Virus record (IMG/VR): IMGVR_UViG_3300044842_000325
Coordinates: 32,001 to 96,000 of that record
From: a virus
Taxonomy: Duplodnaviria > Caudoviricetes
Reading direction: 5' to 3' (one strand)
DNA: 64,000 nucleotides
Shown here: piece after piece, positions 2,522 through 51,739 of the stretch
Numbering within the stretch: position 1 is the stretch's first letter
How the letters are laid out: each line of letters opens with the position of its first letter
Notes under the pieces: model-generated
Told to the model about the DNA's origin: nothing
The model's database searches: none
The model's input: the letters and a program-made list of their open reading frames with translations, nothing else
Program-made: the position numbers and the translations under genes

Positions 2522-3127
2522 TCACACTTCACCAAACAATACGTGTAGTGTGTGCGCCAAATCGATGAATCCGCTCGGTTGGCTGCACCAGCGCTGGATG
2601 ACGTCGATGAGGGTGGTGTTCTTCGGGCGCTTGTCGCCGGTGATGAAGAACCAGTTGAATTGCCCTTCGTTGGGCGTTTCGTTGTGGGTGATTTCCGACA
2701 GCGAGAGCATGGCGCCCCAGTTGTGCAGACTCATCCCCCGTTTACCGGTCTCGATGAAGGTCAGCGTCTCGTGCAGGAACTTCATATGCATGTCACCCGT
2801 GGACGGACCATTCATCTGAATGTTGATCCATTCGACGAAGTCTTTGGTGCCAAACGCATTGAGCGCGACCCGCAGAATCTTCTCACGGAACTCCATCGAA
2901 TCGGCTGCGCCATACGAATCGTTCAGCGCGGCCCACAGGGCTTCGATGTTTTGGTTGACCTCTTTCGGGTTAACCTGGTTCTTGAACCAGTCCGGATGGT
3001 ACTGGTAAGAACGCAGCTGCGATGCTGCCGAACGCTCAGTCGGTTTGATTTGCTCACCGAGGCTGGCACCCAGAAAGCCGCGCGGGTAGACCCGAAAGCC
3101 TTTGTAGGCCGGTGCGGTATCAGGCAT
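2522..3127 (-). CDS. Conserved phiKZ-like hypothetical / virion protein
   Basis: 201-aa ORF overlapping the upstream stop, in the head-protein operon. Confidence 0.55.
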   Translation of the reverse strand: MPDTAPAYKGFRVYPRGFLGASLGEQIKPTERSAASQLRSYQYHPDWFKNQVNPKEVNQNIEALWAALNDSYGAADSMEFREKILRVALNAFGTKDFVEWINIQMNGPSTGDMHMKFLHETLTFIETGKRGMSLHNWGAMLSLSEITHNETPNEGQFNWFFITGDKRPKNTTLIDVIQRWCSQPSGFIDLAHTLHVLFGEV

Positions 3128-4031
3128 ATTGTTCCTCGACTTTACGGATCTGGGCCGCGAGGTCTTCGATCCGCTTTTGGGTGTATTCGATCTGCTTGTC
3201 CAGCGCCGGGTCTTGCTTGCCGTGTTGCATGCGCTCCAGCTTCAGCTTACGCAGTTCCAGCGCGTCTTTCTCGGCTTTCTTCTGTTCGTAGCGATAGTGC
3301 TGGTAATCGGCGATCTTCATGCGCACATGGTAGATCGGGTTCATGGCGATCGGTACGAAACCGTGGCGGAACGGATCGAGCTTGGCCGCGCCGACGGTGT
3401 GCTGGACCACGGCGTCGCCGGTCTTCGTAACCGTGATGTCCGGGATCTCTTCGAAATCGCTCTTGATCTTGTCGGTCGGCTTGGACAGCGTGTCCATCAC
3501 CGTGCAGAAGTCGATCAGGCGCTCGTTGATGAAGCGCACATCAGCCGGCACTAGCGCTGCGCCGAGTTCGTTGGCGACATCGGCGTCTTCGCCTTCCAGT
3601 TCAGCGGCCTCGACGACGTACGCGTAGTTCAGGTACTTCATCGAGTAGTCGATGGCGAAGCCGATCGATTCCAGCATTTGCAGGATAGCGGTCTTGTAGT
3701 ACGTGATCCCCACGCCTTCGATGTCGTCAGTGTAATCCTTCTCGACCAGCGATTCGATCAGGGCCAGCGTGGAGAGCATCGGTTTGATCGACTTTTCGAT
3801 CGCGACGATGGTGTTCGTGCCGTTGGCGCCGCGCACGTTACGACGGAACACTTCCCAGTCCTTTTGCAGCGACTGGTTGATGAACTTGCGGGCACCGAAC
3901 ACTTTCAGTGCGTCCTCGTACGCCGGCACCACGATGGTGGTCAGGAGCAGCTTGTTGATGCGGATGTCTTCCAAGACCGTCTGCTTGGAGAAGTTGGGCA
4001 GCAGCGACTTGAGAAAGTCAACGATTTTCAT
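3120..4031 (-). CDS. Internal head protein (phiKZ gp90-like)
   Basis: 303 aa with a C-terminal coiled coil; synteny. Confidence 0.55.
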   Translation of the reverse strand: MKIVDFLKSLLPNFSKQTVLEDIRINKLLLTTIVVPAYEDALKVFGARKFINQSLQKDWEVFRRNVRGANGTNTIVAIEKSIKPMLSTLALIESLVEKDYTDDIEGVGITYYKTAILQMLESIGFAIDYSMKYLNYAYVVEAAELEGEDADVANELGAALVPADVRFINERLIDFCTVMDTLSKPTDKIKSDFEEIPDITVTKTGDAVVQHTVGAAKLDPFRHGFVPIAMNPIYHVRMKIADYQHYRYEQKKAEKDALELRKLKLERMQHGKQDPALDKQIEYTQKRIEDLAAQIRKVEEQYA

Positions 4032-44746: not shown

Positions 44747-44784
44747 CTCTCGTTCCCGCTTTTGCGGGAACGAGAGTATGCCGT
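44747..44784. terminator. Bidirectional hairpin terminator
   Basis: 13-bp perfect stem CTCTCGTTCCCGC/GCGGGAACGAGAG followed by TATGCCGT. Confidence 0.7.
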
Positions 44785-46928
44785 CAATAGTAGTCCATGG
44801 CCAGTTGGCTCAAGTCATCATGATTGAAATAGAATCCAATGGTTTCCAAAATCAAGTAAAACATTGCTGTTGCTTTTTGTACGATCTTGCGCACATCCAC
44901 CGCCATCATGATCTCGTCCGGAATCCCTTTGGCAGAAACGATCGGCAAAGGGAGCTGCAATGACGTGATCTTATCGCGGTTATTCGTTTCTAGCCAACGG
45001 CGCATGGCTTTGGCAATGTCTTGGTCAGGCATCTTCTCCAGCCAGTTATTGGTCTTGGTTTTGCTATCCAATTCCAAACTGACATAGATCGCCTTGTAAG
45101 GTGGCGGCGGGATCATCCCATACTTTTGACCGAATACATCGTTCCACATGCCGTACTGTTTATACGTCGAGGTTTCTTCGCCGTTCTTGTACGCTGCCGG
45201 GTCTTTTACGGTACTGAGTTTCAGGAATTTGAATTCCCCTTTACGGATCGACTCAACGATACTGCGTTCCAGGTCAGCCACTTCCTTGACATACTTCATG
45301 GCGCTGATACTGCCTTTGGCCATGATGGTGTTCATGATGTCGAGCATCATGTTCTCAGCCTGCGCAACAATCGCTTTTGGTGCATTGGAAGACTTGAGGT
45401 GAACCCCTTTGATTTCCTTCTTGAGTTCTTTCTTGATGTTACCTTCTTGGCAGCTGATCTGGGCAAAGTAGTGTTTACCGAGTTGGGTCAGAACAAACAC
45501 GTCGAACTTGTATTCATTCTTCATTTCAATGGTAAACGCGTGATCCCGGCCAATCCCCACGTTGGCGGACATCTTGGCTAGAATGTGGATGATCGATTGC
45601 GATGCCAAAAAGATCATTGAAGCGCACACGGCGTCGTAGGTCGCATCGAACTTGACTTGCTTGCAATACCAGAGAATCCAGTCTTGCGTGGTGAAGATGG
45701 TCGAGTCCGTGTCCGACACCAACACCACCCGGCGCAAGCTGTGTGGGAACATCGCGATCGAAGCAGGCACATTGTCCGTGGCCCAGAACGTACGAATCAG
45801 GTCGGCATACGCCCACATGACGTTGGCGATGTTTTCGGTTTGTGCTGCCACGATCGCGTAACCGACAGGATTATTCTTGATAATCTCGTCGATCGACTTG
45901 CCCTTGGTGATCTCGGGCTGGAGTTGCTTGGCTAAGTTGAAGAAGTCTTCGGGCCACTTTTTGATGGTTTCGGCGGGAGTGGGATCAGGTACATCCACCC
46001 GTTGAATAAGGCGTCCCATAAAAGTGCGTACAAAATCATCGTTGAATTCCTTCAGTTGGTACATGTCACCCGTGTACACAAAGGCAGCACGTTGGATTGG
46101 CGTGAGATGATCGATCAAGTCACGGATCTTGGCGTACGACGGCTTATGATTCCAATACAGCTTGGCCGAACGGTACACAACATTGAAGGTTTCTTCAGCG
46201 GTCGGGTAATGCAGGTTGTAACGGGTCATCACGTGCTCGACTGCCGCCATGTCGGTGTGGGCAATGATCGACACGATGTTGTTGCGCGTAATGTCATACG
46301 ACCAGTAGTGACGATTACTGGCCAAGAAGCGTTCGTTGTTGGCATTCCCGTATGCCGAGGTTTGTCGACAAGAAGATGTGAGGGACGAGTGGCCGGTCTT
46401 GTTGGTGATCGGGTTGTGTTCACTCACCATGGCGCCCGACACGGCGTTGTTCGCCAACTTTTCCGTGGTTTGCTTACCACTGAAGAAGCGGTAGTTAAAG
46501 CTGCTCTCGCCCTCCTCTTGACCCGCTTTAAACATCGCTTTCTTTGCTACGCCACGCGACTTCACGTTGTCGTATTGGAATTTCGACAGAGGGGACAGGC
46601 GCACCTTGGGATTGTGATACGTAGTGAACGTGGGAGCGTAGATCTGTTCTTCCCCGAGGATCGTGCCGATGTATTCCGACATCGGGATCACCCCGTCTTC
46701 CCGGTCACCGGTATCGAAATCGCGTTCGAGGAACACGGCGTTGGGGTCTTGAATCGGGAACTCGCCGGTAGGGGAGAGTTGCTGCTTGACGAAGCGCATG
46801 GCTTCTTCGTACGAAATCCCGGCCATGATTTGCAGATGAGCTGCATGTTGATGCATGGCGTGACGAATCGGGTTGATATCCCGTTTGTAATCTTCAGCTG
46901 GAGAAATAAACGGACTGTTCTTAGACAT
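44784..46928 (-). CDS. Split family-B DNA polymerase, C-terminal polymerase part (phiKZ gp50-like)
   Basis: Motif B Q...KLANNAVSG, motif C SDTDS, KHY and KGV. Confidence 0.88.
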   Translation of the reverse strand: MSKNSPFISPAEDYKRDINPIRHAMHQHAAHLQIMAGISYEEAMRFVKQQLSPTGEFPIQDPNAVFLERDFDTGDREDGVIPMSEYIGTILGEEQIYAPTFTTYHNPKVRLSPLSKFQYDNVKSRGVAKKAMFKAGQEEGESSFNYRFFSGKQTTEKLANNAVSGAMVSEHNPITNKTGHSSLTSSCRQTSAYGNANNERFLASNRHYWSYDITRNNIVSIIAHTDMAAVEHVMTRYNLHYPTAEETFNVVYRSAKLYWNHKPSYAKIRDLIDHLTPIQRAAFVYTGDMYQLKEFNDDFVRTFMGRLIQRVDVPDPTPAETIKKWPEDFFNLAKQLQPEITKGKSIDEIIKNNPVGYAIVAAQTENIANVMWAYADLIRTFWATDNVPASIAMFPHSLRRVVLVSDTDSTIFTTQDWILWYCKQVKFDATYDAVCASMIFLASQSIIHILAKMSANVGIGRDHAFTIEMKNEYKFDVFVLTQLGKHYFAQISCQEGNIKKELKKEIKGVHLKSSNAPKAIVAQAENMMLDIMNTIMAKGSISAMKYVKEVADLERSIVESIRKGEFKFLKLSTVKDPAAYKNGEETSTYKQYGMWNDVFGQKYGMIPPPPYKAIYVSLELDSKTKTNNWLEKMPDQDIAKAMRRWLETNNRDKITSLQLPLPIVSAKGIPDEIMMAVDVRKIVQKATAMFYLILETIGFYFNHDDLSQLAMDYY

Positions 46929-46989
46929 GTTGGACCTGTTGTTCTGACTCGACTACATGATGAGACAACACGATACAAAAAAAGAACTG

Positions 46990-47032
46990 ACGGCATAAAA
47001 ACCATCCAAGAGCCCGAAGGCCCTTGGATGGG
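46990..47032 (-). terminator. Hairpin terminator with T-tract and TATGCCGT
   Basis: CCATCCAAGGGCC-TTCG-GGCTCTTGGATGG-TTTTTATGCCGT. Confidence 0.7.
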
Positions 47033-47337
47033 AAAGGTACAGCTTAGGATATCACATGGGTAAAACCCAACTTCACGACATGAGCAACGCCGTCGCGTTT
47101 CAAAGATCCAGTCTTGGTAGCGAGCACTCCCAGCCAACGGATCAACCATCGGGAGGAAAGGAACCGATGGGATCGACATCCGCTGGGCCAATGCCCGCTC
47201 TCAAGTCGCGCCACCTCTACGCACCGTTTCTATGGACACTACAGCGTCGCTCATCGCACATCCCCTGTCGCATACAGGGGCACAACTTCCCCGCGGGCCA
47301 GGTCCCACGAAGCGCATGGAGCGTGCGCACTCCCTGC
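47003..47337 (-). ncRNA. Candidate structured non-coding RNA (~330 nt)
   Basis: Nested helices with G-U pairs that form only on the minus strand; promoter-like TATTGAATG at the 5' end and a terminator at the 3' end; no credible ORF. Confidence 0.55.
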
Positions 47338-47366
47338 ATTCAATACGTATCCCGAATAAAAAAGGA

Positions 47367-47774
47367 TTACGATGCCGATTCGAAACTAATTGACTTCACC
47401 TGGAAACCATTGGCGGCCAAACAATCGAGCAGTTTTTGCTGACGGCTGCTGGACGAGTTATCGATCACGACGGTATGGCGACCGAGATTGACTGATTCCA
47501 GCGTGGCCGGGTTGATCCACTCCATTGCGATGATCTGCGTGGCGCCCGACGGCAGACGAATGCGCAGATACTTGTACTTGCTGGGATTGTTGACCGTGCT
47601 GCCCGGCAGACTTGGATACACCAGCGCATGTTGCGCTAGGATATCAAAACCCATCATCTGCGCGGTTTCGGCGTCGAAGATCGACATCACCAACGCGTTC
47701 TTAAAGTTCGTACCCAGCACGGCGACCGGGTACACACTGAACGAGTAAATACCACCAACCTCAATATCCATCAC
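47367..47774 (-). CDS. Conserved beta-barrel (SH3-like) protein (phiKZ gp49-like)
   Basis: 135 aa with G..YSF..YP...LG, H..VYP.LP and WI motifs; SD GGAG. Confidence 0.6.
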   Translation of the reverse strand: MMDIEVGGIYSFSVYPVAVLGTNFKNALVMSIFDAETAQMMGFDILAQHALVYPSLPGSTVNNPSKYKYLRIRLPSGATQIIAMEWINPATLESVNLGRHTVVIDNSSSSRQQKLLDCLAANGFQVKSISFESAS

Positions 47775-49955: not shown

Positions 49956-50921
49956 TTATCGATAGATGGATTGTGGGTCATGTGCCAAATCGCGGGAGCG
50001 AGCCTCGTCTTGTTCACTGACAAAACGATCCCACGAACCGTCAGCTTTGGCTTGGAGAAAACGTTGATAAGCAGGATCGCGAGTGATGCATTCCCACTCA
50101 TGGATGCGATGGTCTCCCAGTTGGTCAATGCGTAGCTCGTAACCATCCAGGTAGTTCACCGTACACATCTGGTAACCGTTATGCCGCAGTGCATTGCGAA
50201 TTGGCTGTAACACCAACAGCATGTGTTCGAAGATGCCATTGAAGGTCATGTTGAACCACGGGTCAGAACGCAGATGTTCCACCTTCGCCCGTTCAGGCAG
50301 ACGCGGGTCCAGATAGGCTTCGCTGATGAATGGCGCGATGATCTCTTCGATCAAGAGCGACCGTGCTTGTTTGTTGAACTGTCGGGTCGAGGCGATCTCG
50401 TTTTCGATGATCTGGTAAGCGATCTTGATACCGGCCCAAGGCAGGGTCGGGCGCAGTGACGCCATCGCGGCCAGATGCCGCGGTAGCACGACAGAACGCG
50501 GTTGTGCGTCGGTACCTGGGAACGCATCGTTGGGGTTGTAGGGAGGTGGGTAGAAGTACATTCCCATGTCCACCACATCCCACGGTGTTGTCAAGACCTG
50601 TTCGAAATTCTCCACACGGATGTAGTTGTAGCGGTAATACTGCCACGGTTGGTTATTCGACCTTCTTATTTTCTCCAGAATTGGATTCAGACTAGGGGAC
50701 TGGTCTGTACGTTCAGGTTGTGCTTTGCTCAGGAAGACTGCTTCCTGATACCAGTAAGGATAACCCGCGCGCATCACGGGTTCCAGTTGGTTCGGCAAAT
50801 ACACGCCGGCCTCAGGTTCACGCAACACGTCTTGCAAACTATTCTGAATCGAGTGTGCTACGTCATGCAGATCCGAATAGTGGGAATGGCGGATGTCCAA
50901 CTGATGAGAAGAATGGTGCAT
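49956..50921 (-). CDS. Conserved hypothetical protein (phiKZ gp42-like)
   Basis: About 321 aa from ATG 50921, just after the upstream stop; C-terminal GD.RI.EWE motif. Confidence 0.55.
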   Translation of the reverse strand: MHHSSHQLDIRHSHYSDLHDVAHSIQNSLQDVLREPEAGVYLPNQLEPVMRAGYPYWYQEAVFLSKAQPERTDQSPSLNPILEKIRRSNNQPWQYYRYNYIRVENFEQVLTTPWDVVDMGMYFYPPPYNPNDAFPGTDAQPRSVVLPRHLAAMASLRPTLPWAGIKIAYQIIENEIASTRQFNKQARSLLIEEIIAPFISEAYLDPRLPERAKVEHLRSDPWFNMTFNGIFEHMLLVLQPIRNALRHNGYQMCTVNYLDGYELRIDQLGDHRIHEWECITRDPAYQRFLQAKADGSWDRFVSEQDEARSRDLAHDPQSIYR

Positions 50922-50923
50922 GG

Positions 50924-51352
50924 TCAGCGTAGTTGTTCGTTGGGGTTGTATGTTAAGTCCACATACAACCAAGTCGATTGTCGGTAGATCTCGTGCGCGT
51001 GCAGATGACCTAACAAGAAAGGGAACCAAAAGTAGTACCTGGACAGACGCGGATAATCGTGGTATTCCACCAGATGGTCCCACACTTCGTGGAACTCGGG
51101 GCTGTACTCATCCAGACCTTGATCGATGTAATGTATTTCGGCCAAGTATTTTCGAACCAACCAGTCGATCAGTTCATCCCGTTGAGTGCGCGGTTCGGTA
51201 AACCGATGAGTCGCGGTCCACGGATAATTCTGGTCGATCGAATTATTGTCCAGAAGCCAGGGAAACTTTGGTGCCAGGTGGTAAAAAGCGGTCTCTAGGT
51301 ACATCAGAAAATCACGGATGTCCAGTATCCAGACCGAGCGCTTTGAAGGCAT
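50924..51352 (-). CDS. Hypothetical protein (phiKZ gp41-like position)
   Basis: 142 aa, aromatic-rich, SD AAAGGA. Confidence 0.55.
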   Translation of the reverse strand: MPSKRSVWILDIRDFLMYLETAFYHLAPKFPWLLDNNSIDQNYPWTATHRFTEPRTQRDELIDWLVRKYLAEIHYIDQGLDEYSPEFHEVWDHLVEYHDYPRLSRYYFWFPFLLGHLHAHEIYRQSTWLYVDLTYNPNEQLR

Positions 51353-51420
51353 GGTGGTCCTTTAAATGGCTTCTACGTATACCATATCAGCCATGGGTAA
51401 ATTAATGCCTAATCGAATTG

Positions 51421-51483
51421 ACGGCATAAAAAAATAAGTCCACTTACCCAAACACTCTCGTCAGAGAACGCTTAGGTAAGTGG
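51421..51483 (-). terminator. Terminator of the phuZ transcript
   Basis: CCACTTACC/GGTAAGTGG stem followed by TTTTTTTATGCCGT. Confidence 0.65.
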
Positions 51484-51485
51484 GA

Positions 51486-51739
51486 AATGGAGGGGCATGG
51501 GATAACTAATGTTGACCAGTTCTCTGACTCATGAATCATAGAACTGCGTCCCTTCGTTCAATCCGCTCCCCTCCAAGTGTACTTCGTTTAACGTCCGATC
51601 ATCCCGTCTTGCAAAGCCGCTTCGATCCCAAAGGGAACGCCACAGAGTGGAGCCAGTTACAGAGGACGCAGACTCAGACAGACACCGGACAGGCGTCTAA
51701 TACCGCACGCAGCGGATGGGCCAAGTTGTGGGTGGGAAT
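51486..51739 (-). ncRNA. Candidate structured RNA / long 3' trailer
   Basis: Nested stem 51488-51575 and an alternative 8-bp pairing 51544-51551 with 51664-51671; no credible ORF. Confidence 0.3.

Follow-up and report, generated by a model that had tools for sequence, protein, structure and literature searches.

A conserved non-coding RNA family with a probable pseudoknot between the SH3DP and DNA polymerase genes of chimallin-encoding jumbo phages

What occupies the long gap that separates the gene for SH3DP (SH3-fold protein associated with phage DNA polymerases) from the DNA polymerase gene in a group of jumbo phages? The DNA analysed here (64,000 nucleotides, hereafter the window) is part of an IMG/VR virus record of 128.8 kb with a completeness estimate of 48%. 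Its minus strand contains a 438-nt gap between the two genes, in which an earlier note, made from the sequence alone, had placed a large structured non-coding RNA (ncRNA). The 714-aa polymerase has its best cultured match in Burkholderia phage FLC9 (47% identity by tblastn), followed by Ralstonia phages RP12 and RP31. An SH3DP neighbour is common to all relatives at the polymerase locus, and genes for the phiKZ internal protein and for chimallin are found near the locus in relatives. Judged from this gene content, the source is a nucleus-forming jumbo phage of the chimallin-encoding clade.

Fold, strand and conservation of the RNA

Folded as minus-strand RNA, the 438-nt gap reached -180.3 kcal/mol, compared with -152.8 +/- 6.5 kcal/mol for dinucleotide shuffles; none of 100 shuffles did as well (z-score -4.27). 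The plus strand of the gap reached just -140.1 kcal/mol. The many G-U pairs, the terminator and the orientation of the genes all assign the RNA to the minus strand, in agreement with the choice of strand that the earlier note had based on G-U pairs. The note had described a 13-bp helix with two G-U pairs (47241-47253/47081-47093) enclosing a rod made of four sub-helices and an 11-nt loop. The helix is present in the sequence and in the minimum free energy (MFE) fold, where it extends to about 16 bp, and every part of the rod is found there as well (Table 1). Less fortunate was the proposal that a repeated module (GAAGUUG, hairpin, AUGUG) flanks this core on both sides: the repeat is specific to the window, and relatives keep only the GUG-rich linker of the 5' copy, which is one strand of the probable pseudoknot described below.

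Table 1. Positions in the window of the RNA, its predicted elements and the adjoining genes
Feature	Position	Strand	Basis
SH3DP, 135 aa, upstream gene	47367-47774	minus	Pfam PF20287, E 2.6e-35
Conserved promoter-like block	47334-47363	minus	kept in 11 homologs and in L017, L033, L021 and L031, though outside the fold
Whole ncRNA, about 340 nt	46997-47339	minus	fold and covariation; 5' end putative, 3' end at the terminator U-run
P1 hairpin	47318-47333	minus	stem covaries (6-sequence alignment columns 56-60/67-71)
P1 loop CGCAC, probable pseudoknot strand	47323-47327	minus	complementarity to linker
P2 hairpin, conserved loop ACCUGG (CUGG in distant relatives)	47286-47312	minus	RNAalifold, homolog alignment
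P3 hairpin, near-invariant loop WUGCG(A)	47262-47280	minus	covariation analysis (A3 helix 1)
J3/4 linker GUGCG, probable partner of P1 loop	47255-47259	minus	matching changes in homologs
P4 closing helix	47239-47254 with 47080-47095	minus	A3 helix 2
P5 helix, 5' strand CAURG, partner CYUGA side	47226-47234 with 47101-47110	minus	A3 helix 3
P5a short hairpin GCGU-AGAGGUG-GCGC, SD-like loop	47208-47222	minus	A3 helix 4
P6 long rod	47113-47205	minus	one rod in 11/11 homologs; A3 helix 5
Apical loop UUCCUUUCCUC, 11 nt, anti-SD-like	47153-47163	minus	MFE fold; CCUUU-type motif in all homologs
Small 3' hairpin	47058-47068	minus	MFE fold; variable in relatives
Intrinsic terminator, 13-bp stem, UUCG loop, U-run	46997-47031 (hairpin 47002-47031)	minus	stem covaries (6-sequence alignment columns 411-438)
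TTTTATGCCGTC motif directly after terminator	46989-47000	minus	two exact copies in window
Polymerase-proximal conserved block (T-run 46977-46983, ATGTAG 46953-46958)	46953-46983	minus	conserved in relatives
DNA polymerase, divergent family-B, phiKZ-like phages, 714 aa, downstream gene	44784-46928	minus	tblastn to jumbo-phage polymerases; PF20286 in relatives

Syntenic loci in uncultured phages were retrieved with the polymerase protein as query. The resulting set comprises 11 distinct sequences from uncultured chimallin-encoding jumbo phages whose polymerases are 65-91% identical; scans of viral and metagenome contigs with DNA patterns and profiles yielded one new homolog only, L012. The gap between the SH3DP and polymerase genes measures 416-494 nt in these homologs, with the exception of L019, where an inserted ORF brings it to 816 nt. 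It can be aligned to the window at about 68% identity, and the fold is retained. RNAalifold predicted 79 pairs from six sequences, 41 of them compensatory. In an alignment of the central domain (A3, 11 sequences), standard pairs filled 90.7% of the cells, as opposed to 29-48% after sliding the partners by 1-3 columns; 31 of the 47 pairs showed changes on both sides, and none of 500 shuffles reached any of the observed measures. Compensatory changes affect 16 of 17 pairs in the P4 closing helix, 5 of 8 in P5 and 9 of 14 in the distal helix of P6. The basal half of P6 could not be aligned, yet a continuous rod of about 40 bp is predicted in each of the 11 homologs. Searches with a covariance model built from A3 (R1) returned exactly one copy per genome and no other matches.

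The combination of covariation with many G-U pairs indicates that selection acts on the RNA rather than on DNA hairpins. This speaks against a replication-related RNA, such as an origin transcript or primer, a role for which the only arguments are the position beside replication genes and the presence of GATC boxes. GC skew does not turn at the locus and the terminator would release the RNA, so that a part in replication appears very improbable. A small-protein gene was rejected as well, since no reading frame is kept among the homologs: the 40-aa ORF at 47217-47339 opens with an ATG at 47339 in the window, most relatives have GTG followed directly by TAG at this place, and the indels that distinguish the gaps of relatives are not multiples of three.

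Rfam 15 (4227 models) was searched over the whole window, with the gathering threshold of each family as criterion, and produced no match; under permissive filters the sole match was symR, at noise level (17 bits against a threshold of 61, E 2.2). ARAGORN found no tRNA or tmRNA gene in the window, two classes that the earlier note had likewise set aside. A blastn comparison of the gap with 50,697 phage records gave no match, and full-text searches of the literature turned up no account of such an RNA. In all likelihood, then, a conserved structured RNA exists in the gap between SH3DP and polymerase. The earlier suggestion of an undescribed phage ncRNA is borne out by strong covariation across the 11 homologs, by the missing reading frame, by the negative Rfam, tRNA and tmRNA searches and by the silence of the searched literature: the window RNA belongs to a real, conserved ncRNA family with a probable pseudoknot, absent from RNA catalogues.

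Architecture, probable pseudoknot and distribution

In the architecture predicted from folding and covariation, three hairpins (P1 to P3) form the 5' part, P4 encloses a junction that comprises P5a and the P6 rod of about 40 bp, and the terminator ends the unit. The two halves of P6 evolve differently. The basal half is variable in sequence but its pairing is always kept; the distal half contains conserved GAUC boxes (47171-47174 and 47140-47143) and a UU bulge. A CCUUU-type motif (CCUUU or CCUCC) occupies the apical loop of P6 in 11 of 11 homologs and in L017, and this CU-rich tip is the one exposed motif retained throughout. The AGGUG in the P5a loop is kept in 10 of the 11 homologs; the most distant homologs, L016 and L017, have another sequence in its place.

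The P1 loop probably pairs with the J3/4 linker that precedes P4, forming a pseudoknot that was missed in the earlier sequence-only reading. Loop and linker are complementary in every homolog and change together, the pairs being CGCAC/GUGCG in the window, CACAC/GUGUG in most homologs, UCCAC/GUGGA in L012 and UCAUGC/GCAUGA in L019. Six nucleotides of the L019 linker can pair with its own P1 loop, compared with at most three with the loop of any other homolog. In a matrix of duplex energies, cognate and non-cognate combinations gave similar means (-7.5 versus -6.9 kcal/mol), so that support for the pseudoknot comes from the matched changes in L019, L012 and the window. Shuffle statistics give this pairing no more than moderate weight, since a linker rich in G and U will readily pair, by composition, with a loop rich in C and A.

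Beyond these homologs lies a wider clade composed of L017, L021 (phage FLC9), L031, L032 and L033, with polymerases 46-58% identical and gaps of 486-603 nt. All five gaps share the terminator and its TATGCCGTC ending. Two were compared with shuffles, and both gave more stable folds than these: FLC9 (z -4.25) and L017 (z -2.7). The MFE folds of all members except L032 include a pyrimidine-rich hairpin loop, for example CUUUCCUCCUUUCU in L017 and UUUCCUCCUUGUUUC in L031, and the closing helix, the GAUC boxes and the CU loop of the window RNA all recur in the L017 fold. The R1 model scores only the loop region of L017 and does not detect the element in the FLC9 gap; homology of the RNA body as established with R1 is thus limited to polymerase identities above about 65%. 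It is plausible that the FLC9-type element is homologous to the body of the window RNA.

In FLC9 (LC667451.1, approximately 2709-3244), the gap is an unannotated stretch of 536 nt, no less structured than the window RNA, that extends from gp3 to gp2, the polymerase gene, gp3 occupying the position held by SH3DP in relatives. It has the 5' block, the terminator with TATGCCGTC and CU-rich loops in common with the window RNA. The FLC9 gap is a possible experimental model for the RNA, and the presence of a syntenic structured gap in a cultured Burkholderia phage makes the idea testable at the bench.

Boundaries of the unit and its relation to the flanking genes

The conserved block that precedes the fold begins right after the SH3DP stop codon and follows the consensus TTTTTTAY, about 10 nt, (G)TAT, 3-4 nt, RTGYAG. 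In the window, its parts are a T-run at 47358-47363, (G)TAT at 47343-47346 and ATGCAG at 47334-47339 (GTGYAG in relatives). The promoter-like motif that had been noticed at 47337-47345 falls within this block, which is longer than had been supposed (47334-47363). The block would act as a promoter. Its layout (T-run, TAT, RTGYAG) recalls the description of the phiKZ early promoter as a 'T-rich motif upstream of -19 plus an extended -10' (PMC8244752). A similar block, from T-run to ATGTAG, lies 25 nt ahead of the polymerase start codon. Genome-wide, the pattern T-run..RTGYAG occurs at 3-10 sites per genome, just two to three times the shuffled count; since it is so rare, a promoter role can only be put forward as a proposal, and the pattern as a general class of promoters is unproven.

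At the other end, the terminator reported in the earlier note was found where expected (hairpin at 47002-47031, followed by a U-run), and its U-run leads into TATGCCGTC at the 3' end of the ncRNA. Copies of the TATGCCGTC motif number 2 in G000, 7 in G001 and 6 in FLC9, against 0-1 for a control pattern, and most copies of the strict motif come after a GC-rich hairpin and ahead of an ORF. By this recurrence after terminators and before ORFs, the motif marks the boundary between transcription units. The second exact copy of the post-terminator motif in the window is at 51420-51431, also on the minus strand.

A recurring punctuation between units, consisting of a GC-rich hairpin, a U-run and TATG(C/A)YGTC, can be recognised in G001, G002, FLC9 and the window. 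Each complete genome has 6-7 exact copies of it, most often with an ORF 14-120 nt further on, and it may represent a combined terminator and phage-promoter element. The insertion in L019 (positions 2077-2406) is an ORF of 109 aa that brings a terminator and a TATGC motif of its own and lies between the terminator of the RNA and the polymerase-proximal block; its appearance is that of a mobile or accessory gene cassette.

The second long non-coding gap in this region, 387 nt on the minus strand (window 51353-51739), folds to -138.8 kcal/mol, compared with -113.5 kcal/mol for shuffles (z -5.15). It ends in a 20-bp hairpin with a U-run and the same ATGCCGTC motif. Its counterparts in G001-G003 share 70-80% identity with it; at least one hairpin shows compensatory changes, and some stretches, GGGAUGAUCGGACGUUAAA among them, do not vary. 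The gap has no Rfam match and probably encodes another ncRNA of these phages that has yet to be described. Just downstream of it, also on the minus strand, ORFs 49956-51083 and 50924-51352 lie in different frames and share about 160 nt. Pfam matches neither of them, and the overlap could be due to a mis-set start, a frameshift or a programmed overlap.

These boundaries bear on how the RNA relates to its neighbours. One possibility is that it is the product of premature termination in a leader of the polymerase gene: transcription would start at the 5' block, stop mostly at the terminator and sometimes read through, making the element a cis-acting attenuator of the polymerase and the short RNA a by-product. 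The order of promoter-like block, structured RNA, terminator and gene matches 17 loci of phiKZ (PMC10914365), and the place before the polymerase gene is conserved across the clade. However, no conserved antiterminator could be identified, the best alternative partners of the 5' arm of the terminator lying at unrelated positions in the 11 homologs; a terminator-based riboswitch or attenuator, which requires a mutually exclusive antiterminator pairing, was rejected on the same count. Pairing with the translation start region of the polymerase gene was also rejected, as the best duplexes involve a different position of the RNA in every homolog. (A 7-nt match between the P2 loop, GGACCUG, and the polymerase leader of the window, CAGGUCC, does not recur in relatives.) In addition, the polymerase gene has conserved upstream motifs of its own past the terminator, in L019 another gene sits between it and the RNA, and 340 nt of covarying, knotted structure far exceeds the needs of an attenuator, the phiKZ examples being shorter than 250 nt. 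A leader of this type seems rather unlikely. The 5' block, the terminator, the TATGCCGTC motif and the insertion in L019 together favour a separate RNA gene over a polymerase leader.

A comparable question arises on the upstream side, where no terminator was found between the SH3DP stop codon and the RNA. The element might be a structured 3' UTR of the SH3DP operon, co-transcribed with it and either stabilising or terminating the mRNA or processed from it, with no function in trans; phage RNAs derived from 3' UTRs are known, for instance ncRNA1 and ncRNA2 of PAK_P3 (PMC10914365). Against this, a terminator hairpin would suffice for the job, and something beyond stability seems to be under selection, to judge from the invariant loops, the pseudoknot and the conserved 5' block. 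Moreover, chimalliviruses outside the clade (Xoo-sp14, Ea35-70, FBKp24 and DT01) keep the SH3DP-polymerase pair with a gap of just 20-165 bp; in RP12, the upstream gene, which was not assigned as SH3DP, ends about 100 bp before the polymerase gene. We consider it distinctly improbable that the RNA serves as a 3' UTR and nothing else.

Candidate functions and known systems

With a stand-alone RNA as the preferred reading of the locus, attention turns to the apical loop. The earlier note had remarked that this loop is complementary to a Shine-Dalgarno (SD)-like sequence, and it does contain UUCCUUU, the exact complement of AAAGGAA, which proved to be the dominant signature of ribosome-binding sites (RBSs). 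An occurrence was counted if an ORF of 70 aa or more started 3-11 nt after it, gene calls not being used. By this count, AAAGGA stands just before a start codon in 25 of 49 occurrences in G000 (where one occurrence is the antisense of the apical loop itself), 62 of 126 in G001 and 60 of 115 in G002; for AAAGGAA the figures are 12 of 22, 36 of 60 and 29 of 46, respectively. Control hexamers scored approximately 5-16%. AAAGGA(A) thus dominates the RBSs of the three genomes, about half of the occurrences of the hexamer being just before a start codon.

The loops of relatives can pair with at least 6 nt of the AAAGGAA signature, in differing registers. No covariation between loop and targets was found. 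When targets of the apical loop were predicted comparatively in G000, G001 and G002, spurious long-loop duplexes prevailed and no target was common to the genomes. The complementarity between loop and RBSs is generic, as any anti-SD-like loop will complement ordinary SD sequences. The CU-rich loop resembles the pyrimidine tail of 16S rRNA (CCUCCUUUCU-type); the apical loop of L017 holds CCUCCUUUCU itself.

Of the functions offered, an anti-SD activity fits best because no exposed motif is more persistent than the CU loop, which also mirrors the RBS signature of the phage. We tentatively favour a stand-alone, trans-acting ncRNA with a probable pseudoknot that acts on translation by way of its anti-SD-like loop, a reading that we hold as possible rather than probable. 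Transcription would begin at the conserved T-run/TAT/RTGYAG block that directly follows the SH3DP stop codon, and the intrinsic terminator would release the RNA. The rigid rod would then present the loop in trans to the AAAGGA(A) ribosome-binding sites of mRNAs, where it would compete with the 16S rRNA tail, thereby tuning or repressing translation from a set of messages, be they of the phage or of the host. Either the CU loop or 16S rRNA could, by sequence, be a pairing partner of the AGGUG loop of P5a; the mechanism would then be another one.

It is also conceivable that the CU loop (with its likeness to the 16S tail), the AGGUG loop or both bind a protein or the 30S subunit instead of mRNAs, the RNA serving as a decoy or scaffold. 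Invariant elements within helices (the GAUC boxes with the UU bulge, GGUGGCGCGAA and the UUGCGA loop) suggest protein or tertiary contacts, the fold is compact and knotted, SD-like and anti-SD-like loops are both conserved, and L017 has the rRNA-type sequence in its loop (see above). On the other hand, the AGGUG loop is not found in L016 and L017. Binding of this kind is rather unlikely in our estimate, and the same holds for the partners that come to mind: a host factor or nuclease recognising the 16S tail, ribosomal protein S1 or S21, or a phage protein such as SH3DP.

Bolder still, and unlikely, is the thought that the clade encodes a dedicated structural mimic of the mRNA-docking site of the ribosome, a knotted RNA whose rigid arm would display a replica of the 16S anti-SD tail together with an SD-like loop. 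That such a mimic re-routes translation after mRNA export, by sequestering competing RBSs, by occupying the 30S subunit or by acting as a decoy for a host factor that attacks the 16S tail, is an equally long shot. If true, the phages would be taking over translation initiation by means of an RNA, something not yet known from phages. Considering that the complementarity is generic, that no target was found and that a second loop is SD-like, we rank an anti-SD riboregulator first and a premature-termination leader second, followed by a protein or 30S decoy or scaffold, a 3' UTR element, a replication RNA and a 6S-like RNA.

Non-coding RNA has hardly been explored in nucleus-forming jumbo phages. 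It goes unmentioned in a 2025 review of these phages and receives one sentence in a 2026 review of jumbo phages. The present locus offers a family with covariation in its favour and a probable pseudoknot, at a fixed genomic address and with a plausible hold on translation. Should the anti-SD reading be correct, the RNA would bear on the choice of messages at the ribosome in phages that separate transcription from translation.

Staphylococcus aureus RNAIII and regulators of the RsaE/RoxS type are stable multi-hairpin RNAs with pyrimidine-rich loops complementary to Shine-Dalgarno sequences. The window RNA has in common with them an exposed C/U-rich loop complementary to SD sequences. It differs in that a single main CU loop caps a rod of about 40 bp, that the fold is probably pseudoknotted and that the RNA belongs to a nucleus-forming jumbo phage, and it shows no similarity to them in sequence or by model (the Rfam search being negative). 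Anti-SD riboregulators are a functional class and not a homology family; besides such a loop, they pair with specific mRNA ribosome-binding sites and thereby lower translation, and for the window RNA an in-silico ranking of duplexes in three genomes gave no consistent target. GOLLD and ROOL are large, ornate and intricately folded RNAs of phages and prophages. The window RNA is likewise large, intricate and phage-associated; it is smaller, has another architecture and context, and gives no match to their models. With 6S RNA it shares a long helical element, and a 6S-like ligand of RNA polymerase had been among the earlier suggestions. This identification found no support: the window RNA is branched and probably pseudoknotted, without the central open-promoter-like bubble of a 6S rod, and no 6S model matched even at E values up to 10. 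A 6S-like role is accordingly extremely improbable.

The nearest precedents in setting are the short RNAs of phiKZ, 71-196 nt long, which reside in 5' UTRs or intergenic regions and were mapped by ONT-cappable-seq and Grad-seq (PMC10914365). Like the window RNA, they combine a structured RNA with a terminator close ahead of a gene; their starts were mapped, and that of the window RNA is predicted. The phiKZ RNAs have no published covariation-supported fold, whereas the window RNA is about 340 nt long, probably pseudoknotted and confined to another clade. In the phiKZ-type relatives that were checked, the gap at the SH3DP-polymerase junction is short, unlike that of the window clade.
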